Part shown: positions 1 to 64,000 of the stretch, one piece after another | How the letters are laid out: every line of letters starts with the position of its first letter | Numbering within the stretch: position 1 is the stretch's first letter | NCBI GenBank assembly: GCA_964627085.1 | Contig: CAZVIP010000002.1 | Coordinates: 4,416 to 68,415 of the forward strand | Direction: 5' to 3' | DNA from: an uncultured Candidatus Saccharibacteria bacterium | GTDB lineage: Bacteria > Patescibacteriota > Minisyncoccia > Phycocordibacterales > CAIZLB01 | Length of the DNA stretch: 64,000 nucleotides | Position numbers and translations under genes: made by a program | Notes under the pieces: generated by a model | Told to the model about the DNA's origin: nothing | Database searches by the model: none | Seen by the model: only the letters and a program-made list of their open reading frames with translations

Positions 1-25
1 CGCGTATGGAACAAAAAATCCACAC

Positions 26-328
26 ATGATTGCCTTTTTTCAAAAGTCACTCAGAGCTGCGGTCACGCAGTATCGCCGGAAACTACACAGTCCAAAAAAA
101 GGGCCAGCAAAAGTCACCCTGAAAAGAGTCCATCAATTCCCTGTCATCAAGGAAAGGATTCCGCTCTGGCGCCAAATGATAATCTGTTTCAGTCATCTTA
201 CTTCTGCTGGCGAGGATCTCTCACCAATTGAAAAAGAAGATTGGAATAGACATTCTGGTCAACCAATGAGTCACTTCTTAGACCCTGAATTCAGACAGGC
301 GCTGGAAGAAATGCGTTGGGCTTATTAG
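26..328 (+). CDS. hypothetical protein (100 aa)
   Basis: Intact ORF followed by a strong rho-independent terminator; local GC higher than most of the window. Confidence 0.3.
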   Translation: MIAFFQKSLRAAVTQYRRKLHSPKKGPAKVTLKRVHQFPVIKERIPLWRQMIICFSHLTSAGEDLSPIEKEDWNRHSGQPMSHFLDPEFRQALEEMRWAY

Positions 329-356
329 CACTAGTCTCAAGCAAAAAAACCACACG

Positions 357-399
357 GCCAACCTCACCCTCTTCTGGGTAAGGTTGGCCTGTTTTTTTA
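357..399 (+). terminator. rho-independent terminator (GC hairpin ggccaacc..ggttggcc followed by a T run)
   Basis: Perfect inverted repeat followed by ttttttt; an A run upstream makes it potentially bidirectional. Confidence 0.6.
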
Positions 400-429
400 T
401 TTATATTTTTTCACAATTAAAATTCAAAA

Positions 430-451
430 GGCGCGAGCTTGCGCTCGCGCC
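430..451 (-). terminator. terminator hairpin ggcgcgagc-ttgc-gctcgcgcc downstream of the HAAO-like gene
   Basis: 9-bp GC stem; T-rich tract follows on the minus strand. Confidence 0.5.
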
Positions 452-478
452 TTATATCAAAGTTTGCTCACAGCATTG

Positions 479-994
479 CTATGCTGATTCAAACAATTGA
501 ACCACATTCTGGATAAATGACGTCATCGTTCCAAGTAGCTGAACCAGCTCGGCAGGTCCGGTAAAATCAAGACCGGTATTTGATCCAGACAAATGGACAA
601 AGCGCTCTACCGGCAGCGACTTCCACTCGTCACCAGACTCCTTTTCTCCAGCCTGCCCATATGTGACATCACACAAGGGATGAGGATCGGCGCCTGGCGG
701 TAAATAAAACAACTGTATCCTGAGCAATCGCCCCACCAATTTGACACTGATAAGGTTGTGCTCTACGACACAATGGTCGGCTTGGGTTATTTGGATACCA
801 AAGCGCTCACCTTCAGTCATGTGATACACCTCACGTGCCGAACTTCCGAAAAATAAAGGCATCTTCTCATCCTCAAACCTTTGCGAAATCGCAGCGGACG
901 CAGGAATCTTGAATACACCAGTTGTGCAGTATTGCTGCATGAATCTAGGGAGTCTATTCAATACATCCTCCCAGCTATGCATTATTTTTGCCAT
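479..994 (-). CDS. nbaC: 3-hydroxyanthranilate 3,4-dioxygenase-like cupin (HAAO/NbaC family)
   Basis: Residues YHMTEGERFG..H..V and LFYLPPGADPHP match the HAAO cupin motifs YHIEEGEE and FLLPA.VPHSP; about 170 aa as expected; lies in a GC-rich block. Confidence 0.55.
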   Translation of the reverse strand: MAKIMHSWEDVLNRLPRFMQQYCTTGVFKIPASAAISQRFEDEKMPLFFGSSAREVYHMTEGERFGIQITQADHCVVEHNLISVKLVGRLLRIQLFYLPPGADPHPLCDVTYGQAGEKESGDEWKSLPVERFVHLSGSNTGLDFTGPAELVQLLGTMTSFIQNVVQLFESA

Positions 995-1945: not shown

Positions 1946-2121
1946 CGTGTTTTATCTTTCTATGTTTGACGTTGTATGTAGATGGCAGTTGATGCGGTTT
2001 GCATAAACCAAGCCATATAAAGTGAATGAACTAGCAAGATTAAAGTACCATGAAGATTTCAACATGGCAATATGCCATATGCGCGCCTAAGACACAAAGT
2101 CAAAGTATTTTTGAAAATAAA

Positions 2122-2142
2122 AAGCCCTTTTGCGAAGGGCTC
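2122..2142 (-). terminator. terminator hairpin agccctt-ttgcg-aagggct
   Basis: Hairpin followed by a T run on the minus strand, downstream of the 2183..2584 gene. Confidence 0.5.
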
Positions 2143-2182
2143 TTTATCCTAAATAATTAACAATAGATTTAGCAAAAACAGA

Positions 2183-2584
2183 CTAACTATTCTTGATATA
2201 TTTCTTTGATGCAAAATAGAAAATGAGGACGACACCGACAAATGCAATCGATTCATATGTCAAAATTCCTGTTTGCAATAATTTCCAAAGTCTAAATCCC
2301 CCACCAATCAAGACCAAAATGATTGTCGACTGAGTTACCACCTTGTTCGCATCTTTGATGATGTAAGTCTTATTAACATATTTTGATGAATAAATAACAC
2401 CAAGCCAAATACTCACCAAACTGAGCAACATAAGTATTGGCATGAGTAGTTTTGGATTATCTGCAAAAGCCAATGTAAGCGGAGCACCGATAATAAGTGC
2501 GATCAAAAAAGGTACAGCAAAACCAGCGGTTAACCAATGTGTTGTAGCAATATACCAATCTGATGAATTCTTTTTTTGTTTCAT
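2183..2584 (-). CDS. integral membrane protein (4 predicted TM segments), unknown function
   Basis: Hydrophobic-segment pattern in the translation. Confidence 0.45.
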   Translation of the reverse strand: MKQKKNSSDWYIATTHWLTAGFAVPFLIALIIGAPLTLAFADNPKLLMPILMLLSLVSIWLGVIYSSKYVNKTYIIKDANKVVTQSTIILVLIGGGFRLWKLLQTGILTYESIAFVGVVLIFYFASKKYIKNS

Positions 2585-2700
2585 AATTTAATTATATATT
2601 ACTTGTTAAAAGATTTGAATACACAGCTTGACTCAAACTCTAGTGCATGGGACGATATCTTCGAAAGTTTCAAAGCAAATAAGGACTGCTTTGGAACAAT

Positions 2701-3480
2701 ATGTTCTTTGTCCTACAACCAATAATTAATATGAGTCAAGAAACTCCAAGTGCCACTAGTGCACCACCAGTAATAGGTCCAGTAACCACTGGTGCTACAG
2801 ACCCAGCCACTGACCACAGCCAAGAACCAGAACACGCATTCACCCTTCAGACCGAAACAGCTGTCTTGCCTGTGGACCCGGATGCTGAACTGCTTCAACA
2901 GCTACAACCAGAGGATATACTCAAGCAAATAAGAGCTGCTGTCACTGAATTTATCGAGAAAGCAAATAAGAGTTTACGCGAAGCAGAATCTAGGTCTAAC
3001 GAGCTACGCAGATTACTCGAGGTATACCCTCCTGGCGTAGTGAAAGCCTTACTCGAAAAATGCACAATGGGCACGGTTTTTTCTCCAATGATTACCGCAG
3101 CTATGCGAGATCACAACAGGAAAATAAAGTTACCGAGCACAGGCGATGAGCCAGCGTTCTTGACTGAAGTGGACTTTAAGAGGCTTCCGACACTGATTGC
3201 GCATTATCTGATACCAATACTCAATGAAACCTACGCAATCGGTGAGATGTTTAAAATAGCTGACATCAGAGCTTTGCTAAGAGCAAAATTCGGAAAGAAA
3301 GGTAATGGTAATTGGGCGGCCAGTGGCTACTTGGCAACCGCTCTAAACAACAGAACAGAGGGGCTTGTATTCACTCAAGGTGAGTTTACACCTACAACCA
3401 GGGTATCAACATCAACCTATCACCGAACCCAAGTGTTAACCTTGAAGGAAAAATGGCTCTCTCATCTTAATGATCTGTAA
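2701..3480 (+). CDS. hypothetical protein with Pro/Thr-rich N-terminus
   Basis: ORF followed by a terminator at 3493-3523; real start may be the internal Met (MSQET) at about 2731. Confidence 0.45.
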   Translation: MFFVLQPIINMSQETPSATSAPPVIGPVTTGATDPATDHSQEPEHAFTLQTETAVLPVDPDAELLQQLQPEDILKQIRAAVTEFIEKANKSLREAESRSNELRRLLEVYPPGVVKALLEKCTMGTVFSPMITAAMRDHNRKIKLPSTGDEPAFLTEVDFKRLPTLIAHYLIPILNETYAIGEMFKIADIRALLRAKFGKKGNGNWAASGYLATALNNRTEGLVFTQGEFTPTTRVSTSTYHRTQVLTLKEKWLSHLNDL

Positions 3481-3492
3481 GCTGAATAAATC

Positions 3493-3530
3493 GCGCACCC
3501 TTCCCTTTTTGGGACGGGTGCGATTTGTTT
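3493..3530 (+). terminator. rho-independent terminator
   Basis: Hairpin gcgcaccc...gggtgcg followed by tttgtttt. Confidence 0.6.
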
Positions 3531-3550
3531 TATGTGTATTTATGCGGTAG

Positions 3551-3964
3551 TTAAATTTCCAAACCCGCAAGCAAACCCTTGATTTCGTCTTTGATTCTTC
3601 TGGTTTCAATGAGGTCTTTGTTTTTTGGATCGAGCACAAACCATCGAATTAATTTTGGAGAATCAATTAAGTATTGTGGTAAATCTTCATCTTCAAGAAT
3701 TGCGATGACTTTATCAGAATTATTTACCATATCTTCAGTTACCTGCTTTCGTATTGCAGTGCTGATATCTAGACCCTCCTCTAACATGACATCAATGACA
3801 GCCTGTGTGAGTGGTACTAAATTTCCGATTGGTTCCTCGGGGCCACTTAATTTTGTGCCCGCGGATACTGCCTCGTATTTATTTGCATATAGTTTATGTA
3901 CCAAGAATTCAGCCATTTGACTTCTACCTACATTTCCTCGGCATAAGAATAGGATTTTTTTCAT
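3551..3964 (-). CDS. low-molecular-weight phosphatase family protein (LMW-PTP/ArsC fold)
   Basis: N-terminal P-loop LFLCRGNVGRSQMAE (CX5R(S) signature); no ArsC resolving cysteines, so a phosphatase is more likely than an arsenate reductase. Confidence 0.6.
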   Translation of the reverse strand: MKKILFLCRGNVGRSQMAEFLVHKLYANKYEAVSAGTKLSGPEEPIGNLVPLTQAVIDVMLEEGLDISTAIRKQVTEDMVNNSDKVIAILEDEDLPQYLIDSPKLIRWFVLDPKNKDLIETRRIKDEIKGLLAGLEI

Positions 3965-7670: not shown

Positions 7671-7706
7671 ACGAGGCCGGTGCAAAAAAATGGTTTGCAC
7701 CGGCCT
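7671..7706 (-). terminator. strong 12-bp-stem hairpin (ggccggtgcaaa...tttgcaccggcc) followed by a U-rich tract on the minus strand
   Basis: Perfect inverted repeat; sits upstream of the KMO operon and about 480 nt downstream of the 8189 gene. Confidence 0.4.
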
Positions 7707-8188
7707 GTGTATGAAACCTCATTGAGGTGGAACAACTGTTGCGTTTGGGATCTGTGAGCGACGAATCCTGTTCCATGTTTTGCATGGTATACAAGAAATC
7801 TTGTACGCATACCCGGTGACTTACCTATTCCTCACCATTGATTACTCTTTGGCTACTTTTCGACGCAGTAGTATATTCTTTATCTTTTCTTACATCCTCT
7901 TTTGAAGGCTGTTTTCTTCCGAATTTCTTCGGTGCAGAATTGGGATTTCCCTTGGTCTGCTATTGTGGTGTACCACCCGTTGGCATATTACGGGGCTACT
8001 ACAGAGTCTTGTACTCGGCGTTTGGCATGGCATATTTATACACCAGATATAAATCTGGTCAACCCTTCTCGAACACTCTAATCCACTCTCTCAATGAGGG
8101 CCCACTTGCATATCTCTCAGGTCCACTGAATAACCCCCCTTCGAACAAGAAGCCGTATTCACGGATTGATAACCTCGATTAATCATCT

Positions 8189-9664: not shown

Positions 9665-10318
9665 AACCATTTTATGAAGTCGAGTTATTTGTAATAATCT
9701 AATCCATGTGTGCGCCACCCCACATCTCTATCCTAGCACCATACACAGCCTCAATTGAAGTATTTTTTGTCTTGTTGATTGAACTATTCCCAAATGACAG
9801 TTTTGTTGCAACCGACTATGCCATCGTTACGCCATTTTCTCCGTAAATATTTGCCCTCTCTATTTTAATGTCGCCGTTTTGAGCCAAAAAGCTAATTATT
9901 TTAGCAGATGTATTTGTATTATTAATATTCAACTCACTATTTAATTTTGTTATAGCATTAATATATTTATATTTAATGTTTTTAAATAGTTCAACCATCC
10001 TTCTTGAAAGATATATCTTGCTAATTACCACCTAATTAATCCAATAATAGCAGTTACTACATAAAAAACTGCAATACCGAAAAAGACCATCTTTTATCGA
10101 TTATTGCCCAACCAGCGAAAAGTAGTGCTGATATTAAAAGCAATGTAAAACCTAATATTTCATTTCTTGTATTTGATGCAAGTAAGAGTGCATATATTAT
10201 ATGCAAGAAAAGAACCGATGAATTCAAATATGGTAGTTATCTTGTTTTTGTTCATATTGTATTATGAGTATAAAAAACTTTAACCCTTCTCGAGTGCTCG
10301 AACTATCAATCTAAATTT

Positions 10319-10399: not shown

Positions 10400-10535
10400 A
10401 TCGCGGAGCTATGCTCCTTAAAATCTGTGAGCCTTCTCGAGATAGAACCAAATGGTTCATTGCTGGGTAAGGTTATTTTTAATGTTTTCATATATCACGA
10501 CGACCCTTCTCGTGCGTACCTTATCTAATACCTAA

Positions 10536-52345: not shown

Positions 52346-55300
52346 CTACAACACTTTCTTTGCTAAAAGCTCATTTATCTTTAATCGTGTTTTTGGACCA
52401 ACTATTCCATATCCTTGTTCTCTTGGACTCTTGACTACACCAAATTTTAGCTGGAATTTCTGAATAGCGCCCTTGGTTGCAGGGCCGAAGAAATCTGTCT
52501 CCTTTCCTGGTGACCCTACTCCTGCCGAAGCAATCTTTAGATCAGGAAAAGCATTAAGAAGTCTTTGTATAATCTTAATTTCTGGTGAATTCTTCCCTTG
52601 TGACTGGAGACTTGTGATGACGGCTCCAGATCCGATAATATTTCCAATACCACCTTGGTTCTGTCCGTTGTTCGCAGCTGTTGGATTTTGCGGAGACACC
52701 ACAGCCTTATTACCAAATATAGCCTGTAACTCTGAACTTGAAAGAGTTGATGCAGAAACCGCACTTCGTGATCCTGGTACAGGTGTATTAACGACTGGAT
52801 CCGTAGACACACTACCTGGTAATGCAGCAGTTGTGAAAACAGCATCACTTGTTGTCGAAATATTTTGAAGAAGTCTCGAAGCGAGTATACGATAATGATA
52901 TGTAGTCGAAGGAGAAAGACCAGAAAGCGATACAGAGTGAGTAGTATGACCAGTCGAAGTAGAAACAGTGCCATATGAAGTTGTCAGACCATATGCAATT
53001 GATGATGACGCATTGATATCAGTAGTCCAATTGATAGTAGCTGTTGTTGTACTTACATCAATACTTCCTCCAGTGATCATCGGGAGAATACCGTCGACAA
53101 CCAAGTTTTTACTCGCAGCAAGATTTGTGGCCGGTGCAAAGTTCGACATACTATTTCCATTTTGGTCTGAAATAGTACCTGATATTGATAGTGTAGTCAG
53201 ATCTGCTGATGTGTCCCCTCCTTGGACCACATAGTCGCATGTCGCGGTAGTAGAATTAGATACCGTAAATACACATGTCCGATCAGTAGTACCAGTCTCA
53301 AGTGTCACTGTGACATCACCTGTCGATGTCACTGCCTCAGAAAATCCTATGTCAATATCAATTGTATCCCCAATCTTATAGGTACCATTCGTAGCACTAG
53401 ATGAGACCGTGCTAATTGTCGGGGCAGTAAAATCTGTATTTATAGTAAATGTACGAGCTGTTGATGTAGAAGTATTACCCAATGAATCAGTTACACTCAC
53501 ATACATATTGTATGTACCATCAGAAAGACCGCTAAATGTATTACGTACACCATATGAAGTAGTTCGCCATACAGACCAATAATCAGCTTCGGTTGCTACA
53601 TATAGATAATCTCCAGTACCATCCCATGTTATACCTTCTGGCATTTCAAACAAGAAGTTACTACCACTATCTGCACGGGCATAAACTTTCTTTTCTCTCA
53701 AAACAGAACACGATGATGTACTTGTAACATCGATTTCAAACATTTTATCTGCTATATGAGAAAGAACATAGAGATGATTGTTGGTAGGTTCAAAATACAA
53801 ACCAGATATGTCGGAATATCCAGGACTCGCTGGGAATAGTGATGCATCATTCAATGTAAGTGTTGCAAAATTAATATTAGTACATATTTGTGTACTAGCT
53901 GCACTGTTGGTAGAAATGTTACCTGGTACAACTTCGTACAATTTTGGAGTTCCAGGCACACCTGCACTACTCTCTTGTCCTTCTGCAGCAGCAAAGAAAT
54001 ATCCATTATTTGAATTATACGCCACACCTTCCAATCCACTATTTGTGACAGCTCCACTACTAATACCAGTTGAATAATATTTAGTTCGGTTTACAGTCGC
54101 AGCACCTGTCGAGTGAATAACAACTTGAAATACCTGATGATTCAATGTGTTGACGTCCTCAGTCGAAATCAAGAATGTATGATCATATCCTCCAACTGTA
54201 GTAGAAGCCACACTTGAAACCAATGTTATATCTTCGGCATCATTACAAGCAGAACAGGTTATTGTTCTCACATTCACACCGGCTCGCGTCACTTCATGGA
54301 TTACGTTTTGATTATTGTGAATTGTGAACAATGTATCTGTAGTTGGCACATATGCAACACCAGATAAGTCCCCGGTTATAGAAAGATTTTGTTTGTTTGT
54401 AGTTGTAGAGAGCGCAGAGATATCATAGTTACCATATCTTGTTGATGTGGTTGCTTGCGAAACAAGAGTACCACCCGATGTCTCAAGTCGAAATGTAAAA
54501 TATGAAGGCGTTATTGATGAACCAAGTGTCGTAGAAGCATACCCTGTAACAGATCCAGATGTTGTAGAAAAACCATTACCGATCATCGGACTTGTGAAGG
54601 TCATCAAGTACGACGGTGTCGTAGTCGCCTGACTAGAGGTAGTACTTTCACTGACACCATTCAAACCAGCCACTCTAAAGTTATACACAGAACTGTTTGT
54701 AAGACCTGTCACCATAGTAGTTGTTCCAGTCGACACACCATCTGCAAATGTAGTCCAAGATGAATCCGACGAGAGCTTGTATTCTATTTTATAATCCGTA
54801 ACATCTCCTGAAGAAGCAGTCCATTGTAGGTAGGCTCGATTCTCATACGGCAAAGCTGTCAATCCGGTAGGTTGACCCGGAGCAGTCGGAGCACCTGTAG
54901 TGAGGGTCAAGTTAGACGACGTTGCGATATTTCCCAAAGTATCACGAGATACGATTTGAAAATTATATGTTATTCCACCAGTAAGACCTGTCAGAACTAC
55001 ACTGTGGCTCGTTGTCGCTGCGGCCAATGATGTTGAAGCCGACCCGTAACTTGTAGTGAGTCCGTAATTGATAGATGAGGTCGCCAATTCATCTGTCGTC
55101 CATGTTATGGTCGCAGTAGTTTGTGACGTAGAAGATGCAATTGCTGATATAACAGGAGATGTTACATCTGGCTGGCTCTCTACAGTTCCGTAGGTATTAA
55201 ATGTATCTTGTCCAGAACTATATGATGCACTAATCCAATCAGCAGATCGAGCAACATTGGATACACGCAATTCATCCATTTGCCCATCTAGAAAACCATT

Positions 55301-56371
55301 ATTTAAAGCATTGTTTCGTCCAATATTGAGATTAACTGCAGTTGACTCCATACCACAAGCAGTAGTACTCGCCGTTGCCTGTACCACACCATTAACATAG
55401 AGCTTCATAGCATTTGATGTATTGTCATCCCAAGTAGCTACGACGTGATACCACCCTGCTGCAGCACTGACAACAGAATCACTTCTAATAATCGGAGAAT
55501 TTGCAGAAGGAAGTGTACACTCAATCTGGTATGTTATTTTTTCAATATTTGTTGAACCCGAAGTAGTATCAACATATACACGAAGCTCTCCATCATTAGC
55601 ACCTGATTTTACTCTTGAGAATAAATATCTATTACTCGCTGACACCGCAACGGAATCTATGTCAAACCAAAATTCAGCCGACCCATCAGGCATAGTTGTA
55701 GTTGGCCCTTCTAGCCCCTCATCAACATACTGACTTGTACCATTAAAATCTAATCCGCTACCGAATTTCCCAGTAACTGAATTTCCTGAGGCCATGGTAG
55801 ATGTAGCTGTTCCGTCCTTGTTGTTTGCAGAACTGTCTTGAAATTGCGGAGCTGATCCTGCAGGATTTTCAGACAAGTGCTGAACCATAGAATAACTAGA
55901 ATCCCAAACCCCAGTCGTAGTCGCATTACTGACAGTTGCGGGATTGTTGTAATACATATAGATATAATCGGCATCTGACGCTGCGACATTTGGCACCTTT
56001 GCCCAAATTACAGAAGTGCCAGATGTATCCCATTTTTCAATTTCATGGCTCAAAACAGTAGATCCACCCACATCAACAAATCGGACATCAGCCCCAGCAG
56101 GAAGAAAATCGGCATATGTCACACGAGAAGAATTGAGACTGACTAATATAGGAAAATCAGTGAGCGATCCACGTGCGGCATTTGAAAAAGTAATCTTGAT
56201 TCTCTTTTGCCATGCAGAGTTCCACCACGCATCATCAGCGAGCGCTGTTTTAGGTGTAAACATTCCTGAGATAGATGCAAAACATATAACAAGCAACAAG
56301 AATGCTGCGGCTAATATATTTACTGAGGAAAGGATTTTGTGTGATGGATTGGAAAGGGTTTTTTTATTCAT
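52346..56371 (-). CDS. giant (1341 aa) secreted surface protein: LamG-like jelly-roll, multiple FN3-like repeats, C-terminal peptidoglycan-binding domain
   Basis: Signal/TM; LYVNGVVQATAS..LDGQMDELRVSNVARSADW (LamG-like); repeated ATITWTTDE..SINYGLTTSYG modules; C-terminal IKIIQRLLNAFPDL..FGPATKGAIQKFQ. Confidence 0.75.
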   Translation of the reverse strand: MNKKTLSNPSHKILSSVNILAAAFLLLVICFASISGMFTPKTALADDAWWNSAWQKRIKITFSNAARGSLTDFPILVSLNSSRVTYADFLPAGADVRFVDVGGSTVLSHEIEKWDTSGTSVIWAKVPNVAASDADYIYMYYNNPATVSNATTTGVWDSSYSMVQHLSENPAGSAPQFQDSSANNKDGTATSTMASGNSVTGKFGSGLDFNGTSQYVDEGLEGPTTTMPDGSAEFWFDIDSVAVSASNRYLFSRVKSGANDGELRVYVDTTSGSTNIEKITYQIECTLPSANSPIIRSDSVVSAAAGWYHVVATWDDNTSNAMKLYVNGVVQATASTTACGMESTAVNLNIGRNNALNNGFLDGQMDELRVSNVARSADWISASYSSGQDTFNTYGTVESQPDVTSPVISAIASSTSQTTATITWTTDELATSSINYGLTTSYGSASTSLAAATTSHSVVLTGLTGGITYNFQIVSRDTLGNIATSSNLTLTTGAPTAPGQPTGLTALPYENRAYLQWTASSGDVTDYKIEYKLSSDSSWTTFADGVSTGTTTMVTGLTNSSVYNFRVAGLNGVSESTTSSQATTTPSYLMTFTSPMIGNGFSTTSGSVTGYASTTLGSSITPSYFTFRLETSGGTLVSQATTSTRYGNYDISALSTTTNKQNLSITGDLSGVAYVPTTDTLFTIHNNQNVIHEVTRAGVNVRTITCSACNDAEDITLVSSVASTTVGGYDHTFLISTEDVNTLNHQVFQVVIHSTGAATVNRTKYYSTGISSGAVTNSGLEGVAYNSNNGYFFAAAEGQESSAGVPGTPKLYEVVPGNISTNSAASTQICTNINFATLTLNDASLFPASPGYSDISGLYFEPTNNHLYVLSHIADKMFEIDVTSTSSCSVLREKKVYARADSGSNFLFEMPEGITWDGTGDYLYVATEADYWSVWRTTSYGVRNTFSGLSDGTYNMYVSVTDSLGNTSTSTARTFTINTDFTAPTISTVSSSATNGTYKIGDTIDIDIGFSEAVTSTGDVTVTLETGTTDRTCVFTVSNSTTATCDYVVQGGDTSADLTTLSISGTISDQNGNSMSNFAPATNLAASKNLVVDGILPMITGGSIDVSTTTATINWTTDINASSSIAYGLTTSYGTVSTSTGHTTHSVSLSGLSPSTTYHYRILASRLLQNISTTSDAVFTTAALPGSVSTDPVVNTPVPGSRSAVSASTLSSSELQAIFGNKAVVSPQNPTAANNGQNQGGIGNIIGSGAVITSLQSQGKNSPEIKIIQRLLNAFPDLKIASAGVGSPGKETDFFGPATKGAIQKFQLKFGVVKSPREQGYGIVGPKTRLKINELLAKKVL

Positions 56372-56547: not shown

Positions 56548-57138
56548 CTATATATTTAAAGGCGAAAACAACTCCTTCAGTACCTTGTATTTTTCAGTGT
56601 CCAGTAGTGCCTCATACAAATCTGGAATGATTTCTTTTTCCATGAACTTTTCATTACGACCTATCTGCAAGAACTCATCGAAAGTGACAGGTTTTAGAGA
56701 TATTCTTTCCCCGCCATCTAATTCTTGATCTTTAACTTTTGTACACCCTTTTGCGATAAAGAAATATACCACCCAATCAATTTTTGATGCAGGATGCATT
56801 GCTTTCCATAAAATATATTCGGTAGCTTCATAGCCTGTTTCTTCGAGGAATTCTCGTTTTGCAGATTCGAGGACGTCTTCTCCTTCTTCCATACGACCTC
56901 CGCATGCGCCGATAAAGGGATCCTTACCCGGCTGTTCCTGTTCAGTCAGAAGAATTGTCCCATTGTCCAAAACCGGAAAAACGACAACTGTATCTGGTCT
57001 TTTTAATTTTTCAAAAACCTTGGTACTACCATCATACATAGGCTGTTCCCATTGGTAGATGTCAAATATTTTTCCTTTAAATACTTTTTCTGCATTCTCA
57101 GGTGACCTTTGTGTTGATTCCGGGCGTTCAATTTTCAT
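56548..57138 (-). CDS. NUDIX hydrolase (second)
   Basis: NUDIX box GACGGRMEEGEDVLESAKREFLEETGY. Confidence 0.75.
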   Translation of the reverse strand: MKIERPESTQRSPENAEKVFKGKIFDIYQWEQPMYDGSTKVFEKLKRPDTVVVFPVLDNGTILLTEQEQPGKDPFIGACGGRMEEGEDVLESAKREFLEETGYEATEYILWKAMHPASKIDWVVYFFIAKGCTKVKDQELDGGERISLKPVTFDEFLQIGRNEKFMEKEIIPDLYEALLDTEKYKVLKELFSPLNI

Positions 57139-57221
57139 CCCTAGATTATATCAAATACCCTAAACTTACATAAGATGGACCAAAACCTGACCACAACTAC
57201 TTACATTCATGTCTGTACTCA

Positions 57222-57431
57222 CTATTTCGTACTTATAAAACCAAAATAGAAAGTTGTAATAAATAATGCAAAATGAACAAATCCTCTATATAACAAAAAA
57301 TCTGGCGTCATAGTTTCAAATCCAAAGAAAAGAAAAGGGACACTTATATCAAGCCATGAAAAATACCAACTCGCTCCAGCTGTTACAAAAAATGCACCTG
57401 ATAAAAATTTAGAAACGTTTTTGTATATCAT
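57222..57431 (-). CDS. small membrane protein (69 aa)
   Basis: 2 TM segments; ORF only. Confidence 0.3.
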   Translation of the reverse strand: MIYKNVSKFLSGAFFVTAGASWYFSWLDISVPFLFFGFETMTPDFLLYRGFVHFALFITTFYFGFISTK

Positions 57432-57562
57432 GTTTATGCTTTATAGAGTACATCAAAGGTTAGGGCTTCTATTAAGGTAAAAAACACCTCACTTGCGCTT
57501 GGTGCTTTTTCTTATTTCTATACTTCGAGCTCAGGACAACACCCGAACCTGTATCATACACA

Positions 57563-57967
57563 CTAAGACAAAATAGTTTTTTCTTCTTTAATTACATATC
57601 CTTGGGTCGCTTCAACAAATTTAGGCTCACTAAGCATTTCTACAACTTTGTCGCTCGCAGAATATTTCAAAAGTTCGTTCGAATATTGAGGAGGTACACC
57701 TCTTGCGCACGAAAGTGTGATGTGAGGGAATTCATTTTCAGATTCAGAATTTTCAACCATCAAGACATCGCATTTTGCGTCGTAAGTTCTGCCCACTATC
57801 TTAAGTAAGACTTTCTCTCCAACCCTCAAACCACTCAGCGAGTCTGGTTTATATTTAATTGTTAAATGATGGCCGTATAAATTCTTATGTTTTGGAGGAA
57901 ACACAGAGAATAATTTATTTGGTTCGTCTATAAAATACCCAGTATAGTAGATGTTTGAGGCACTCAT
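57563..57967 (-). CDS. 2H phosphoesterase-like protein (LigT/cyclic phosphodiesterase superfamily), short form
   Basis: Two H-x-T/S-x motifs (HHLTIKY and PHITLSCA) at appropriate spacing; 134 aa. Confidence 0.45.
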   Translation of the reverse strand: MSASNIYYTGYFIDEPNKLFSVFPPKHKNLYGHHLTIKYKPDSLSGLRVGEKVLLKIVGRTYDAKCDVLMVENSESENEFPHITLSCARGVPPQYSNELLKYSASDKVVEMLSEPKFVEATQGYVIKEEKTILS

Positions 57968-58173
57968 TGAGATAAATTATATCAAGAAGCGGGGTTGGGT
58001 TCAAACTTCTATTGGGATAATAAAAAATACCTTTACAAGATAGGGGTACCTTACTGCTCCGAGAGTTAAATGATGTTAGAACCAATTTGTGTTTAGCATG
58101 AAAAACAAAACTCCGCCCACATAGCAGACAGAGTTTGCTTGAGATGAGCGGAGAAAAGAATCTTGGTTGAGTT

Positions 58174-58686
58174 TTAGATGTGAAAAGAGAGAAAGAGTTC
58201 ATCTTCACCTAACCACTCACTCCTAGCCCACCCAATGTGGGAACACCATTCTCTGGTTCCACTTAACATACCTAGACTGGGCATGTGCACGTCCCCTTGA
58301 TGATTTGGCAGGCTTTCCAATAAGTCACAGGTAACGATTGGTAGCTCAGGAAGAGCCTCCCTCATTTCGTTATTCATCCAGACCAGGATGAGCCCCCTGA
58401 CTCCAGGGAAAACATTTTTTTCAAGAGTTTTCAGATACTCAATCCGATCTCTCATGAAATGCATTGGTTCAGTGGAAGTTTTTTGATGAATCCTGACTTC
58501 AATTGACATACCTGGTTCCATTATAAAACTTTGGCAAGCAAAATTCTGATCGCTCCAGTGCTGACTGAGAGGCCTGGAAAATCTATGGCCATAAGTAGAT
58601 CGAAACGAGTCGACACATCTATTGCCAACGTAACCCGCAGGGACCCTGAGTGTCCCTAAGGACTTGGTGCTATAATACTTATTCAT
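58174..58686 (-). CDS. hypothetical protein (170 aa), GC-elevated
   Basis: ORF only. Confidence 0.4.
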   Translation of the reverse strand: MNKYYSTKSLGTLRVPAGYVGNRCVDSFRSTYGHRFSRPLSQHWSDQNFACQSFIMEPGMSIEVRIHQKTSTEPMHFMRDRIEYLKTLEKNVFPGVRGLILVWMNNEMREALPELPIVTCDLLESLPNHQGDVHMPSLGMLSGTREWCSHIGWARSEWLGEDELFLSFHI

Positions 58687-58896
58687 GATGTTTTGGGTGG
58701 TTGAAATAAAAAGAACGTGACGTATTTATACCACGTTCTTTTTGATTTGTCGAACCCCAGTAGGGATCGGTCACAGGTTCTTTTTGCTACGCAAAAAGCC
58801 CTGCCACCCCGCCTCCTCGTTTTGCTTCGTCGCTTTGCTCCTCACTGCAAAACTTCGTCCGGCTTTCTCACCCATTCGGTAGATTAGGCAAAAGAA

Positions 58897-58930
58897 AAAA
58901 GCCGAGCACTGTGTGCTGGCTTTTTTCTTT
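58897..58930. terminator. hairpin gccgagcac-tgt-gtgctggc with a T run (bidirectional)
   Basis: Inverted repeat flanked by A and T runs, upstream of the RhuM-like gene. Confidence 0.45.
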
Positions 58931-59029
58931 TGCTGCTCCGGGTGTTGGATTATGTTAGAACCATATTACAACATATCCACTGAAATATTTAATATTGATT
59001 ACAGAATGAAGGGTGATAAAATTTTACTA

Positions 59030-60013
59030 ATGACAAAAGCAATACCAAAAAATAATATTGTTATTTACCAAGCAAAATCCGGTGCAATTGAGCTTAAGGG
59101 AGATTTTAAACATGAGACCGTATGGGCTACACAAGCACAGATTGCTGAGGCTTTTGATGTAAATGTTCGTACAATTAACGAGCACATTACAAATATTTAT
59201 AAAATAAACGAGCTTAACAAAGACTCAACTATCCGGAATTTCCGGATAGTTCAAAAAGAAGGCAAAAGAGAGGTAGAACGAGAGATTGGTCATTATAACC
59301 TAGACATGATTCTCTCTGTTGGATATCGAGTCAATTCAAAGAATGCTACAAAATTCCGACAATGGGCAACAAAAACTCTCAAATCACACATTGTAGACGG
59401 CTATACCATAAACCCGAACCGTATCGAAAAGAACTACGAAGCATTTTTATCTGCTGTTGAAAAAGTTAAACTACTCATTCCACAAGATACCATAGTCACA
59501 ACCAACGACACCCTTGAACTTGTTAAGCTCTTTGCAAACACTTGGTTTTCTCTTGATGCATATGACAAATCTGAATTCACTAAAAAGAACCTAACAAAAA
59601 AGCAGATTAAGATTAGTGGCCAAGAATTAACTTCAGCTATTCAAGAACTAAAGCAAGAGCTACTCGTAAAAGGTGAAGCTACAGACTTATTTGCAAACGA
59701 AAGACAAGCGGACAGTATTGAAGGAATAGTCGGAAATGTATTCCAATCATTTGGAGGTAAAAATGTCTATGAAAATATTGAGGAAAAAGCTGCTCACCTA
59801 CTTTACTTCATCGTAAAGAACCATCCATTTTCTGATGGAAATAAGAGAAGTGGAGCTTTTGCATTTGTGTGGTTCCTAAAGAAAGCGAAGATCCTTGATA
59901 CCAATAAAATAACACCTGAAGCACTAACTGCACTCACCTTGCTTGTTGCAGAAAGTGATCCGAAAGAAAAGGAACAGGTTACTGGGCTTATTGTAATGTT
60001 GTTGGGAAAGTAA
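59030..60013 (+). CDS. RhuM-family protein with C-terminal Fic/Doc-type domain
   Basis: N-terminal IVIYQAKSGAIELKGDFKHETVWATQAQIAEAFDV and HYNLDMILSVGYRVNSKNATKFRQWATK (RhuM signature); C-terminal HPFSDGNKRSGAF (Doc-type Fic motif HxFx(D/N)GNKR). Confidence 0.7.
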   Translation: MTKAIPKNNIVIYQAKSGAIELKGDFKHETVWATQAQIAEAFDVNVRTINEHITNIYKINELNKDSTIRNFRIVQKEGKREVEREIGHYNLDMILSVGYRVNSKNATKFRQWATKTLKSHIVDGYTINPNRIEKNYEAFLSAVEKVKLLIPQDTIVTTNDTLELVKLFANTWFSLDAYDKSEFTKKNLTKKQIKISGQELTSAIQELKQELLVKGEATDLFANERQADSIEGIVGNVFQSFGGKNVYENIEEKAAHLLYFIVKNHPFSDGNKRSGAFAFVWFLKKAKILDTNKITPEALTALTLLVAESDPKEKEQVTGLIVMLLGK

Positions 60014-60020
60014 CATAAGA

Positions 60021-60050
60021 AAAAGCACCGACTCTGGTTGGTGCTTTTTC
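60021..60050. terminator. bidirectional terminator gcaccgac-tctg-gttggtgc followed by a T run
   Basis: 8-bp stem; shares the 23-nt string ttggtgctttttcttatttctat with position 57509. Confidence 0.6.
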
Positions 60051-60192
60051 TTATTTCTATGTTCCGTATCGAGGACGAGTTCAGAACCGCAAATTGGACT
60101 AAGATTAAAAGCGATTTGGAGTTTAGCGGTATTCTTACACTATTTCCTCAGATGTCGCTTCAGAACTAACCGCACTTATTATAATTAAAGCT

Positions 60193-61509
60193 TTATAGAA
60201 AAATAACATCACCGCCAACTTCTTGTTTTAAAGCTTGGATATAGGACTCCTTTGTACCAGCAGGAACAATTTGTTCACTCCTGACCTCAATTTTCAACTC
60301 CTTATCAAGTCCTATCTCGCTATATAGATCGTGGACGAGCTTTCTTGCTTCTAGCTCGTCCTCTTTAATGGCTTCATTTATTGTATTCAATCTTTCCTTA
60401 TCAAAGTTAAATTCACCAATGAACTTTCCCTCGCAAGTAAGCTTTGCTGTGATGGTTCTTATTTCTTTTCTGTCTCCGTGATTTAGATATTTTAGTAAAC
60501 CAGATAAAAATCCAGTGCATCTATCTGCAAATGAGACTTTTTCAATACAGGCAAGAATATCATAACAACCATTACTGGTGTAAATTTCTCCAGCAGGATT
60601 ATGCTCTTGCTTTTTATTTTTAAGGTCTAATTTTAAGACACTGTCTTTCCATTCAAAATTAGATACTTCAATGACTTTTTCGTCGCCTGAGGCACATAAA
60701 GCTTCTACTTCTTTTTTTGTATAACCACTATAATACGCACCTGTTACATTGAAATTGACATTTTCTAAGTATGTAATAAAACCAGCTCTGAGAGACCATA
60801 AAGTTTTCTGAAATTCACTTAGCAGCTTCTCTAGTTCATTTTTGGTTAATATTACTTTCTCTTCTTGCCCAGAATTAATAGGTTGAAGCTCAATCTTGTC
60901 ATCGTCTAGTATCCTCCAACGTTCGTGAGCGATTGAATGTCTAATTCTTGGATCTATGTTCTCAATTAAAGTTTTTATATGGGCACTGGGTAATCCCTCA
61001 GCTTCCTCTATTCTTTGAAGCATTTTATCCGTTCCAACGTTTACAAACTCCTGAGCTGTTTTTTGTGGAACTCCTTTTTTAAGATAAGGAACAACAAAAA
61101 TGTATATTGGTGTTAGAAAATCACGCAGAAAAACCTCGAATAGTACTTTGTATTCTTCGATCATAATCAAAATCTCCTCATCACCATCATCTTCACTTTT
61201 TCTTGAAATAATCCTGTTTACTTTTTGTGGAGCGTTATGTTCTTGGTTTTTGAGAATTAAAGAAAAGACATCACCAATCAAGTCCTTGCTTTCGGCTTTT
61301 GTATATATTTCATCACAAATCGCTTGATAGAGTTTAGCTTTTTGTATGTCACTGGATTGAATGTTGTAGGAAAAAGCCCTACTCGCAAGATCTAACAAGA
61401 CATCATACGAATGAAATTTTATATGAGGAGACAGAAGTGGTTCTATGTAGTCCTTAAACAGAACTCTTTGCATATTTTTTCCAAGCATTGAATACATAAT
61501 ACTATTCAT
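60193..61509 (-). CDS. hypothetical protein (438 aa) with a possible HEPN-like R-x4-H motif (Abi-like?)
   Basis: RIRHSIAHERW segment; convergent with the RhuM/Doc gene; no confident family assignment. Confidence 0.45.
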   Translation of the reverse strand: MNSIMYSMLGKNMQRVLFKDYIEPLLSPHIKFHSYDVLLDLASRAFSYNIQSSDIQKAKLYQAICDEIYTKAESKDLIGDVFSLILKNQEHNAPQKVNRIISRKSEDDGDEEILIMIEEYKVLFEVFLRDFLTPIYIFVVPYLKKGVPQKTAQEFVNVGTDKMLQRIEEAEGLPSAHIKTLIENIDPRIRHSIAHERWRILDDDKIELQPINSGQEEKVILTKNELEKLLSEFQKTLWSLRAGFITYLENVNFNVTGAYYSGYTKKEVEALCASGDEKVIEVSNFEWKDSVLKLDLKNKKQEHNPAGEIYTSNGCYDILACIEKVSFADRCTGFLSGLLKYLNHGDRKEIRTITAKLTCEGKFIGEFNFDKERLNTINEAIKEDELEARKLVHDLYSEIGLDKELKIEVRSEQIVPAGTKESYIQALKQEVGGDVIFL

Positions 61510-61673
61510 TGATATGAAATGTAATCTAAAGTAAAGTATATATATGACCGACGAGTATTGTAAGAAGCAAAGAAACTCTCAAGCTTTTCTTAAGTTCATT
61601 AACTATACTGAGAACCTTAAAAACGATCCTGCATTCATTTCAGAATTAAGGTGGTTTCGTAATAATTATCACG

Positions 61674-61952
61674 TTGGATACGATACAAAGAAACCAACAC
61701 CTGAGAATTACTAAGGACGTCTATGACAAAAAGCATCAAGAGTATCAGGACAAGATGCAGACACTTGAAATTGAATTTTCTGAACATAGAAAAGCTGACT
61801 ACAATTACCAAACAACCCTTGCTACAGTGATTTCTGTAGCTCGCAGAGCAAAGACCATTTTTGAACTACATGCATCAGAACCCGACTGTAAACGGAAAAA
61901 AGCTATATTTTTCAATAGCTTCTCCGTTCAATTTAGTACTAGAACTAGCTAG
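61674..61952 (+). CDS. small hypothetical protein
   Basis: ORF only. Confidence 0.3.
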   Translation: MDTIQRNQHLRITKDVYDKKHQEYQDKMQTLEIEFSEHRKADYNYQTTLATVISVARRAKTIFELHASEPDCKRKKAIFFNSFSVQFSTRTS

Positions 61953-61984
61953 TAGCCCTAACTGGCTCCGAGCGTTGCATGAAG

Positions 61985-62245
61985 CTAGAACCTCTTTTTG
62001 TAACTTCTCCGTATAAAGTAAGTTGTGAGAATTGGTAAAAGGAGTGGAAAGAGGAAAAGCTGTAATCCTGGCAATTGGAGAAATCTTGGAAAATTATCGG
62101 CATGGATCGTGTGGAAACAAAGAATATATTGCAGACTACATACCTTCGTTGTTCCATTGCTGTATTCCACAGGGATAACGGGAAGCAGATTAAAAACAGC
62201 AAATGCTAAAATAAAGAAAAGAAATGTTATCAGGGATTTTTTCAT
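61985..62245 (-). CDS. small secreted/membrane protein (signal-peptide-like N-terminus)
   Basis: ORF only; tightly spaced upstream of the hydrolase gene. Confidence 0.3.
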   Translation of the reverse strand: MKKSLITFLFFILAFAVFNLLPVIPVEYSNGTTKVCSLQYILCFHTIHADNFPRFLQLPGLQLFLFPLLLPILTTYFIRRSYKKRF

Positions 62246-62247
62246 AA

Positions 62248-62814
62248 TTAAAATGTAATCTTCTCAATTTCATCTAACAACAACGGAAACTCTGCGTAAC
62301 CATCCTCGGTAGTTAGATGACCTCCATTTGAAATAACAATTTCTTTACTTCCAAGTTTTGAGAACTTTTCTTTATTTTCTTCATAACATCCAAATGGATC
62401 ATTGTCAGAAATTATCAAAGTTGAATTAGGTAATACAGATTTTACTTTTTCTAGATCAATTGGTGACTCGATCCAAGGCTTTGCAATCTCTGCAGTTTCT
62501 TCATCCTCAAGATTTTCTAGGTTGAACCAACCCGCCACAAACACAGCCCCACCGACAGTTGTGTCTATTGTCTCCAAATATCTCAAGATTGTTTGACACC
62601 CGATACTATGACCAACAAAATACGTGTTACTGTCTGGTGTTCCTACTACCTCTGATAATTTACCTACCCAAGCACCCATAACAGGGGTATCAATGTCTGG
62701 CATCTGAGGAATACAGACTTCAAAGCCTCGCTTTTCAAGCTCTGTCTTAATCCATGGTCTCCAGTCACCATTTGCATCATCCATCCATTGGTGAACAATT
62801 ATGATTCTTTTCAT
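62248..62814 (-). CDS. alpha/beta hydrolase, RBBP9/YdeN-like serine hydrolase
   Basis: IIIVHQW..GDWRPW and nucleophile elbow GHSIGC; 188 aa. Confidence 0.65.
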   Translation of the reverse strand: MKRIIIVHQWMDDANGDWRPWIKTELEKRGFEVCIPQMPDIDTPVMGAWVGKLSEVVGTPDSNTYFVGHSIGCQTILRYLETIDTTVGGAVFVAGWFNLENLEDEETAEIAKPWIESPIDLEKVKSVLPNSTLIISDNDPFGCYEENKEKFSKLGSKEIVISNGGHLTTEDGYAEFPLLLDEIEKITF

Positions 62815-63011
62815 GATTAAAGCTTAGCACATAAGCAAAACCTTGTCTGAGTAAAAACTTATATCAAAACCTGTATCTTGCATAGATTCCAGACTTATTT
62901 AAGATAGAAAAACGACTTATATTTATTTGTTAGTTTACACACATTACCAGTATAGATCGCCCCTCCTCCGTCGAAATTCGATCGCTGACTCTGAGTGATC
63001 AGACAAAATAC

Positions 63012-63045
63012 AAAACAGCACCGCTTGCGCTATGTGCTGTTTTGT
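63012..63045. terminator. bidirectional terminator (aaaacagcac..gtgctgtttt)
   Basis: Palindrome with flanking A and T runs. Confidence 0.55.
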
Positions 63046-63422
63046 ATTTTGATGCTCGCTTGGAGGGACGCATTTCGAACTTTCGATTGGGCTGGTTTAT
63101 ATAGTAATTTAAGTTTTCATTTAGAACAGACAGGTAAACTACTCTCACTGACACGTTAGCTCCGTGACAAAGCTGCTTATTTTTTTAATAAAACTTTTTT
63201 GTGTGTAAATCTAATGAAGGTAATAAAAAGGGAAAGGAAGGAAAATATATAATTTGCAAATATAATCTCATGCTTACATTTATTTTATTATGGTTAAATT
63301 ATGCCTAAAATACGAAACTGAATATTGTTATGTGCAAACAACGCTTAAACAGCAATGTTATCAACATTTTTTAATGCACAAATATTGCAATAATATTTGT
63401 AATTGTGCATAATATCATTAAT

Positions 63423-64000
63423 ATGATTAATTCATCTACTATTTTACGTTTAAGTGAGCTCGCGTTGAATGGAGAAAAAAAAGAATTAATTTCTTTTTTG
63501 GAAAACTTAGCAGCTGAAGCAGCTAACAACAATAAAAGGAGTTTATATAATAACTTGAAAGATTTAATTCATGACTATAAACAAGATCCAAGTATAGAGT
63601 ACAGCTCTGCAAATCCAGATAAAGTTATTGAGAACAAATCGATCTGGCTCCCAGATGTAATTTTAGCACGTGTAAATCAGTTTGTTGCCTTGAATTCTAT
63701 AAGTGGCCACCAAAAAACTACGCTATTAAGTCATACAAATAAACTATTATTGTTTGGCCCGCCAGGTACTGGTAAGACAACATTAGGTCTCCACATTGGG
63801 GAAAAACTTGGATTACCTGTGCGCTATGTAAAAATATCAGATGTCATATCTTCTAGGTTTGGAGAGACGCTGAAAAATATATCTCAACTATTCGATAATC
63901 AAATAAGAGAAGTTGTTTTTTTAGATGAGTTCGACGCTTTTGCAAAAAGTAGAAACGATACACAAGATATTGGTGAATTGAAAAGAATTGTTACCTCTAT
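63423..64000 (+). CDS. AAA+ ATPase (classic AAA clade), 5' partial - runs off the window end
   Basis: Walker A LLLFGPPGTGKTTL, Walker B VVFLDEFD; about 100-aa N-terminal domain of unknown function; not in the ORF table because no stop lies within the window. Confidence 0.7.
   Translation, partial: MINSSTILRLSELALNGEKKELISFLENLAAEAANNNKRSLYNNLKDLIHDYKQDPSIEYSSANPDKVIENKSIWLPDVILARVNQFVALNSISGHQKTTLLSHTNKLLLFGPPGTGKTTLGLHIGEKLGLPVRYVKISDVISSRFGETLKNISQLFDNQIREVVFLDEFDAFAKSRNDTQDIGELKRIVTS

Follow-up and report, generated by a model that had tools for sequence, protein, structure and literature searches.

Probable serial accretion of large serine recombinase elements at a tRNA-Asn gene in an apparently Candidate Phyla Radiation-like bacterium

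Introduction

In the tycheposon islands of Prochlorococcus (Hackl et al., bioRxiv 10.1101/2020.12.28.424599), small cargo elements sit at tRNA 3′ ends and newcomers push older ones into the island, which holds fragmented integrases, leftover attachment (att) sites and, among the cargo, defence genes. Here we describe a locus that appears to share these features: positions 57.5–64 kb of a 64,000-nucleotide stretch of DNA from an uncultured bacterium (contig CAZVIP010000002.1; the window). We consider it probable that this segment is the tRNA-distal, older part of an approximately 13-kb island that accreted at tRNA-Asn through serial elements carrying large serine recombinases (LSRs). The island lies between conserved chromosomal genes and tRNA-Asn(GTT). 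Whereas 910 of 937 tycheposon integrases are tyrosine recombinases, those found here are LSRs; the leftover sites are P-type (element-type) half-sites with a 5-bp offset rather than partial tRNA copies; no replication module was seen here; and the host appears, from the taxonomy of its relatives and its gene content, to resemble the Candidate Phyla Radiation (CPR). The locus would thus follow a known accretion logic, with LSRs, a 5-bp-shifted site and an apparently CPR-like host.

The half-sites of serine-integrase attP and attB have a common zinc-ribbon-domain motif that is shifted by 5 bp between the two (Rutherford et al. 2013, PMC3783163). The sites in the window resemble the Listeria A118/LI integrase model (PMC3783163) in having common innermost bases and the same outer block, which the element-type site sets 5 bp more distant from the crossover than the host-type site does. 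They differ from it in having a tRNA 3′ end as target, in forming an array of six and in the weak dyad symmetry of the reconstructed attP, and they are known by sequence only. Two products of the island also have described counterparts. IetAS is a known protease/ATPase toxin–antitoxin-like anti-phage pair, whose mechanism is unknown for the type system (PMC13069673), and the RhuM-Doc fusion, with a proposed role as a protein-modifying toxin, was described by Anantharaman et al. 2013 (PMC3710099).

According to the model that we favour, small cargo-carrying elements would integrate serially, each by means of an LSR that targets the tRNA-Asn 3′ end. Integration would rebuild the tRNA from the P′ arm of the element, overlapping the last codons of the recombinase, and would leave a P half-site at the far end of the element. 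Older elements would be pushed outward, their recombinase genes decaying and their cargo genes persisting. Each element would have brought its own defence or toxin gene, and such passengers would act independently and not as one system. In the window, the remains of older elements would be an LSR fragment, six co-oriented att-type sites and single cargo genes, which encode a 438-amino-acid (aa) protein, a RhuM-Doc fusion and a 170-aa open reading frame (ORF). The order of events and any defence activity of the cargo are part of this proposal.

A variable island and its proposed youngest element

A preliminary description of the window, made from its letters, had reported a cluster of accessory, defence-like genes in this segment. 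All of the genes and repeats that it listed are present, with small corrections only, as judged by ORF listing and Pfam scans. Its view of the segment as accessory also held, as the genes lie in a variable island that adjoins a tRNA gene and a recombinase. We found the source contig by exact-protein look-up in 17 public assemblies and extended it 8.8 kb beyond the window, which completed the AAA+ ATPase gene that is truncated at the window end, identified it as ietA and revealed the S8 protease gene ietS behind it. The recovered contigs were all 100% identical to the window. Past the window end, the rest of ietA is followed by ietS, a zinc-ribbon membrane protein, a winged-helix-turn-helix-like protein, two small proteins, a 522-aa LSR and tRNA-Asn(GTT). 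The LSR contains Resolvase, Recombinase and Zn_ribbon_recom domains, and its stop codon lies inside the 3′ end of the convergent tRNA, approximately 7 kb beyond the window end. This is the layout of an LSR integrative element, with a three-domain recombinase at the element end that adjoins the attachment site.

The youngest element would be intact and about 7.9 kb long, running from approximately 63.05 kb of the window to the tRNA. It contains the LSR, two small conserved proteins and a cargo that includes complete IetA and IetS, the ATPase at the window edge being its first gene. Its far boundary was placed by comparison with a sister element, L050, whose LSR is 68% identical to that of the window island and whose cargo comprises a type IIG restriction–modification (RM) enzyme with a specificity subunit, DUF488, PDC-S42 and a tyrosine recombinase. 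L050 ends at a site near-identical to site A of the window (below), with a PF06821 hydrolase just outside, as in the window. We therefore take the youngest element to start at approximately 63.05 kb and the hydrolase to be its flank and not its cargo. Two features lie at the start of this element:

63405–64000, plus strand: 5′ part of ietA, AAA+ ATPase with Walker A motif GPPGTGKT; start at 63405 or 63423; the full gene encodes 365 aa.
63374–63410, no strand assigned: imperfect inverted repeat that covers the IetA start region.

The AAA+ gene and the downstream protease gene form what is, by sequence comparison, a complete IetAS system. The full-length ATPase matched PADLOC IetA (3.7e-59, residues 13–363 of 365), the partial ATPase inside the window matched it at 2e-38, and PF00004 was found at 1.4e-26 with the Walker A and B motifs GPPGTGKT and FLDEFD. 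The 751-aa S8 protease ORF, which lies beyond the window end and overlaps ietA by 1 nt, matched PADLOC IetS over nearly its full length (3e-54) and PF00082 (1.4e-22), and it carries the S8 motifs HGTSVA and GTSFAAP. The partner of the truncated AAA+ gene is therefore not among the window genes. Like known IetAS, this is a two-gene operon with the ATPase gene before the protease gene; unlike it, the system is divergent in sequence (199 and 183 bits), scores 113 bits against NCBIfam IteA on the window-internal half of the protein (cut-off 510) and is a predicted system located on an LSR element of an uncultured lineage. IetAS would act as a protease-toxin/ATPase-regulator pair, independently of the other cargo. 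A PADLOC run recognised as defence content the complete IetAS and the RhuM-Doc protein, which matched candidate PDC-S23. The palindrome that had been placed at 63365–63410 upstream of the ATPase is real, but it is smaller and modest, with 11-nt arms (63374–63384 and 63400–63410) that match at 91%; it may be an operator.

The recombinase belongs to a family with a preference for tRNA genes. We found 194 LSR relatives in metagenome contigs (47–85% identity), and a convergent tRNA lay at, near or overlapping the end of the homologous LSR in at least 40 of 60 scanned loci. These tRNAs were mostly tRNA-Asn and otherwise Gln, Asp, Lys or Ser. Just upstream of the LSR and beyond the window, the two small proteins, of 77 aa (L001 3508–3741) and 68 aa (L001 3961–4167), are kept across many related elements: the 68-aa protein stands beside the LSR in 38 loci and the 77-aa protein in 6, and the cargo is not conserved. 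Both proteins are candidates for a directionality factor or regulator.

The size of the island varies between relatives. Relative L015 (an NCBI contig) is collinear with window positions 30.6–40.6 kb, and the distance from tRNA-Asn to the gene of a 134-aa 2H-like protein is 2.3 kb in L015 versus about 13 kb here, with equal relative order and orientation. The interval between the two genes is thus variable, and the synteny comparison that the preliminary description had proposed places 57.5–64 kb within a size-variable region. The segment between the S30AE/PF1765-like genes (window 40.7 kb) and tRNA-Asn looks inverted relative to L015, where the tRNA comes directly after those genes. L015 also contains an exact direct repeat of at least 31 nt (7672–7715 and 9908–9948), made of the tRNA-Asn 3′ end and a terminator (GGAGCCAGAAAATAGCCTCAGAAATGGGGCT). 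It flanks 2.2 kb with three small ORFs and no integrase, and looks like the attL/attR pair of a decayed or integrase-less insert.

Six co-oriented sites

We built a profile from the repeat copies and ran it over the extended 72.8 kb. Six sites were found, all on one strand, that of the tRNA, and all within 57.5–63.1 kb, with none in the other 67 kb. Their core is GTTC-N18-GGAGC(A/C), and in most copies a terminator hairpin follows. We read them as P-type:

57481–57552, minus strand: site C, GTTC-N18-GAAGT at 57522–57548, then a terminator-like hairpin; contains one 23-nt copy (57499–57521).
58050–58085, minus strand: site e, GGTTCTAACATCATTTAACTCTCGGAGCA; found by repeat search and site profile.
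58888–58964, minus strand: site d (58929–58964), then a perfect 16-bp hairpin (58888–58933).
60015–60169, minus strand: site B, a Type-2 terminal unit with a conserved arm of approximately 80 nt (60088–60169) and the site at 60054–60090.
61959–61995, minus strand: site b, GGTTCTAGCTTCATGCAACGCTCGGAGCCA; overlaps the end of the LSR remnant described below.
63004–63082, minus strand: site A (63047–63082, AGTTCGAAATGCGTCCCTCCAAGCGAGCA), then a perfect 18-bp hairpin (63004–63051); its L050 counterpart is near-identical.

The preliminary description had noted similar terminator-plus-23-nt strings at 57509 and 60036 and had seen them as bracketing a module of three genes. Two exact copies of the 23-nt string do exist, at 57499–57521 and 60038–60060, the second within the bidirectional terminator hairpin of site B (60015–60054), and 0 of 100 shuffles contained a match. 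The string is part of a longer repeat with a third copy near 63.0 kb, and its copies belong to two of the six recombination-type sites with terminators, so that they do not delimit one module.

The relation of these sites to the tRNA points to serine-integrase geometry. The 3′ part of tRNA-Asn reads GTTC-N13-GGAGC, and a 15-nt block is offset by 5 bp between site and tRNA. In L074, a locus with an intact LSR of a second type, the offset between the corresponding 15-nt blocks, GTTCTGAACTTGTCC in the site and GTTCGAATCCTGTCC in the tRNA, is exactly 5 nt. This shift equals the published relation of attP to attB, which suggests that the sites are element-type and the tRNA a host-type half-site. 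At the ends of LSR genes, the motif was found in place of the tRNA in L113, L116, L125/126, L074 and L058. The site B unit of approximately 115 nt is homologous to sequence that abuts the LSR end in L074, with the homology stopping at GGAGC, and the right arm of site b is homologous to the tRNA-Asn trailer/P′ arm of L074. Given the break in homology at GGAGC, the motif in place of the tRNA at LSR ends and the LSR fragment that ends at site b, we infer that the sites are recombination scars: one insertion after another would have left a P-type half-site at its far end. Site A is proposed to be the attR of the youngest element. Similar co-oriented site clusters occur in the relatives L015 and L011, and L015 has a site (10422–10450) at the same position as site C.

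We also considered other identities for the repeats. They are not degenerate whole copies of tRNA-Asn, as local alignments were no better than those with shuffles, the exception being the true 31-nt repeat in L015. Rfam searches, at gathering thresholds and at E ≤ 10, returned nothing beyond hairpin noise, and ARAGORN had no hits. As candidate phage attP sites, the 18-mer was absent from IMG/VR and the 17-mer matched one unrelated phage gene family. An integron cassette array does not fit either: the island contains no tyrosine recombinase, the motif has adjacent GTTC/GAAC and not the R″/R′ architecture of attC, and the cassettes have their own promoters and mixed orientations.

A remnant of a second recombinase

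The window also contains the decayed end of another LSR gene:

61544–62016, plus strand: frameshifted C-terminal remnant of a second LSR, in overlapping ORFs of 56, 92 and 51 aa; ends at site b.

The remnant corresponds to the C-terminal 115 or so residues of a second LSR type, spread over three shifted frames with 60–75% identity to L074 and L058. It is invisible with the island's own LSR as query and was revealed only by the second LSR type. The 92- and 51-aa ORFs are 60–75% identical to the C terminus of the intact 506-aa LSR of L074, which overlaps tRNA-Asn; the 56-aa ORF matched in L058 only. L074 and L058 have the motif at the LSR end and a tRNA-Asn 8–9 kb further on, and in L074 a second intact LSR lies at that tRNA, which indicates that both loci are tandem arrays. 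On this reading, a second, decayed element spans site b to site B in the window and has kept one cargo gene, that of the 438-aa protein. The same trio of LSR remnant, 431-aa homologue and terminal unit was found in L011.

In the element at tRNA-Asn in L074 (12168–18108) we noted an apparent DNA methyltransferase of 376 aa, an adjacent 260-aa gene and several genes of no assigned function. Together with L050, this suggests that RM cargo is common in the LSR family.

Cargo genes

Three genes between the sites are candidates for cargo of older elements:

59006–60013, plus strand: RhuM-Doc fusion, 335 aa from the ATG at 59006 (ORF open from 58913), with HPFSDGNKR.
60193–61509, minus strand: 438-aa protein of an uncharacterised family (426 aa by some gene calls), with IRHSIAH.
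58174–58686, minus strand: 170-aa orphan ORF of atypical composition.

The RhuM-Doc protein matched PF13310 (2.2e-25) and PF02661 (5.3e-12), and PADLOC candidate PDC-S23 at 1.5e-114 over model positions 4–323 of 327. Against the Doc equivalog TIGR01550 (DOC_P1) it scored 33.4 bits, below the cut-off of 38.65, which suggests a Fic/Doc-fold relative and not a canonical P1-type Doc. Like known RhuM-Doc fusions, it combines an N-terminal RhuM with a C-terminal Fic/Doc domain, the latter with the Doc-type motif H-x-F-x-D-G-N-K-R; unlike known examples, it stands without a Phd-like antitoxin gene and without RM or PrrC neighbours. PDC-S23 is a candidate for which we know of no experimental validation. 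P1 Doc arrests translation, and by analogy the RhuM-Doc protein would be a kinase-type toxin that does the same.

The 438-aa protein belongs to a sparse family, with 9 close homologues and about 68 clusters at 50% identity among 1.84 billion proteins. Six members were located by a degenerate DNA pattern, mostly in metagenome-assembled genomes (MAGs) of the CPR; among the named genomes, CPR MAGs predominate (Kaiserbacteria, Vogelbacteria, Paceibacterota, Peribacteria and Kazan), and one is an Elusimicrobia MAG. No close relatives were found in GTDB genomes, and no conserved neighbour or partner gene was found in 9 loci. Across 55 family members E125, R190 and H195 are invariant, and the family has an R-x4/5-H motif with consensus IRNAGxGH. 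The preliminary description had taken this motif as HEPN-like. As in HEPN RNases, the R-x4/5-H motif is invariant, usually RN...H, and an invariant Glu lies upstream; unlike in HEPN, the motif precedes a β-hairpin in the predicted structure and does not start the last helix of a four-helix bundle. The AlphaFold model, made from 55 sequences, reached a predicted local distance difference test (pLDDT) score of 89.8, and Foldseek with this model gave no HEPN or other match in PDB or BFVD. The protein had no Pfam, PADLOC or NCBIfam match, PDB sequence profiles were negative, and the 55 members lacked a recurrent Pfam match even at E ≤ 10. The HEPN label therefore denotes a motif resemblance and is unproven. 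As a weak suggestion, the protein might act as a nuclease through its invariant E/R/H residues.

The 170-aa ORF is GC-elevated, as the preliminary description had stated (GC 0.44 and GC3 0.46, versus 0.26–0.33 in neighbouring genes), and this bump is the main exception to a nearly uniform base composition across the region. Its codon-usage score is 0.00, compared with 0.22–0.46 for neighbouring genes, and a search of 5.8 billion proteins returned no homologue but itself. Either the ORF is cargo, foreign or in decay, or it is not a genuine gene.

Conserved genes within the array

Two genes that had been listed among the defence-like content are conserved lineage genes and not defence cargo:

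57563–57967, minus strand: 134-aa 2H-like phosphoesterase with two H-x-T motifs (HHLT, PHIT).
62248–62814, minus strand: RBBP9/YdeN-type serine hydrolase (PF06821, GHSIG).

HH[LCS]T and PHIT are invariant in five of five members of the 134-aa family (the protein and four homologues). With its two invariant H-x-T motifs and a weak match to PF08302 (tRNA_lig_CPD), the protein resembles 2H phosphoesterases (LigT and the cyclic phosphodiesterase domain, CPD, of fungal tRNA ligase). In contrast to these, it is shorter than typical, has a housekeeping and not a defence context, and its PF08302 score of 21.8 bits is below the cut-off of 23 and covers residues 68–105 only, that is, the second motif. 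No PDB sequence match was found. In all three relatives the gene lies among translation and housekeeping genes, including a tRNA synthetase, and in L015 it has the same position relative to tRNA-Asn. This conserved context and position mark it as a lineage gene and not recent cargo. The hydrolase matched PF06821 at 5e-23 (82.3 bits, cut-off 22), its GxSxG nucleophile being GHSIG, and it recurs as the chromosomal flank of the sister element with different cargo.

Alternative explanations

Several observations weigh against serial accretion. Long exact direct repeats of the tRNA end are absent from this genome; the similarity between sites and tRNA consists of short blocks, and whole-element alignments to tRNA-Asn were not above shuffles. 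Contigs of the same species yielded no empty site or excision junction, the 17–24 recovered contigs all being identical. The 134-aa gene and the hydrolase gene lie inside the site array yet are conserved across species. An attL is not expected to be a target of a serine integrase, so repeated integration needs explaining; related integrases of relaxed specificity, or P′ arms that mimic B′, are examples of how this might occur. Finally, several of the motif copies in L015 and L011 have a terminator on one side and a good −35/−10 promoter on the other, which would also suit a regulatory site. This last point opens an unlikely but serious alternative, in which the GTTC-N18-GGAGC units are lineage-specific regulatory or terminator–promoter modules (a transcription-factor operator or UP-like element) and not scars, only the LSR–IetAS part is mobile, and the island varies for other reasons. 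In its favour, the motif in those relatives is just downstream of terminators and just upstream of a TTGACA-like −35 and an extended −10, one copy precedes an apparently ordinary Inositol_P gene, the copies are well conserved between species, and the motif includes GTTC(N)GAAC, a short palindrome such as dimeric DNA-binding proteins typically recognise. It sits poorly, however, with a motif that occupies exactly the tRNA 3′-end position at LSR gene termini in six loci, with homology between copies that breaks at GGAGC, with the copy that closes the LSR pseudogene in the window, with the confinement of all copies to the island in the orientation of the tRNA, and with a 5-bp offset that fits serine-integrase site geometry. 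A more doubtful variant of the recombination reading regards the sites as being, besides scars, working parts of a cassette-capture platform at tRNA-Asn, where serine recombinases supplied in trans would add, shuffle and remove one-gene cassettes (the hydrolase, the 2H-like gene, RhuM-Doc, the 438-aa gene and small ORFs). If true, this would be a serine-recombinase analogue of the integron in CPR-like bacteria, and it would explain the conservation of the sites across species and the outward promoters at some of them. A smaller and similarly doubtful idea is that the 438-aa family is a single-gene defence effector of new fold with an E/R/H active site.

That the genes of 57.5–64 kb form one cooperating defence or toxin–antitoxin system, with the phosphodiesterase, Doc toxin, HEPN-like nuclease, hydrolase and ATPase as partners, is an idea that the preliminary description had left open and that now seems very improbable. 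The genes are physically close, known defence systems show the same domain themes (Fic/Doc, R..H motif, 2H, AAA+), and RhuM/Doc is found next to HEPN proteins in RM loci (PMC3710099). But their orientations are mixed, strong terminator hairpins lie between every pair and att-type sites between genes, no two of them occur together in relatives, no gene stands consistently beside homologues of the 438-aa protein across 9 loci, genes for tRNA synthetase and translation surround those of the 134-aa protein, and the true partner of the ATPase is the downstream IetS. Nor do the window island genes recur together in 80 LSR loci, the exceptions being the AAA+ ATPase, the hydrolase and RhuM-Fic, each weakly matched in a single locus. 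Equally hard to sustain is the view that there is no island here, only ordinary chromosome that was inherited vertically and whose small genes are poorly annotated. The conservation of the 134-aa and hydrolase genes in relatives, the host-like codon usage of most genes and the fact that no recovered contig represents a strain without the region would agree with it; the 2.3-kb versus about 13-kb distance between tRNA and 134-aa gene, the intact LSR and the LSR pseudogene, the sister element with different cargo, the IetAS and PDC-S23 matches, the sparse and patchy 438-aa family and the orphan 170-aa ORF would not. Serial accretion at tRNA-Asn is thus the reading that we retain as probable.

Implications

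If serial accretion is correct, what looks like a multi-domain defence system can consist of unrelated passengers that piled up through serial integrations, and such a cluster should be neither annotated nor tested as a single operon. The recombinase family, with its 194 metagenomic relatives, would be aimed at tRNA 3′ ends, mostly of tRNA-Asn, and would build defence islands by tandem accretion in apparently streamlined uncultured bacteria, whose mobile elements and immunity are poorly known. The 5-bp-shifted block rule would offer a computational way to delimit such elements, and the LSR integrases with their natural sites could serve as genome-engineering parts. The 438-aa family combines a confidently predicted structure with an invariant E/R/H triad and has no known fold relative, which makes it a defined candidate for a new effector.

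Other observations

Approximately 100 nt past the recombinase stop, on the minus strand, L069, L081, L082, L083, L093, L112, L115 and L122 each have the 3′ half of a tRNA-Asn, preceded by GATGATATAGTCCAC and a hairpin, and no 5′ half. GATGATATAGTCCAC resembles the conserved ‘S’ element of a group I intron. The tRNA-Asn genes beside these recombinases may be interrupted by introns and thus missed by ARAGORN, which explains such partial tRNAs better than a reading of them as attP sites with B-type spacing.

Two members of the 438-aa family have neighbours of note. In L012, a 610-aa reverse transcriptase (RVT_1; 1995–3827, minus strand) is convergent with the family member, and an unrelated 168-aa ORF (55–561, plus strand) lies directly upstream of it. 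In L013, a gene beside the family member (1–876, minus strand) appears by eye to encode a 2H phosphoesterase (HFHVSL, AHITIY) fused to a NUDIX domain; the window counterpart consists of separate 2H-like and NUDIX genes as neighbours (56548–57967).

Some Logan contigs end in Illumina adapter sequence (L009 1–29 and the last ~25 nt of L004), namely …ACACGACGCT[T]TTCCGATCT, a near-match to the adapter, and AGATCGGAAGAG. Such ends are therefore not to be taken as biological junctions, and we rejected contig ends as signs of strain variation, as they reflect adapter or coverage limits.

Upstream of the island, window positions 52346–56371 (minus strand) encode a 1341-aa predicted surface protein with DUF2341, LamG, FN3 and SdiA-regulated domains and a peptidoglycan-binding-like tail at its C terminus. 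Its gene adjoins two NUDIX genes, a layout typical of CPR-like genomes.

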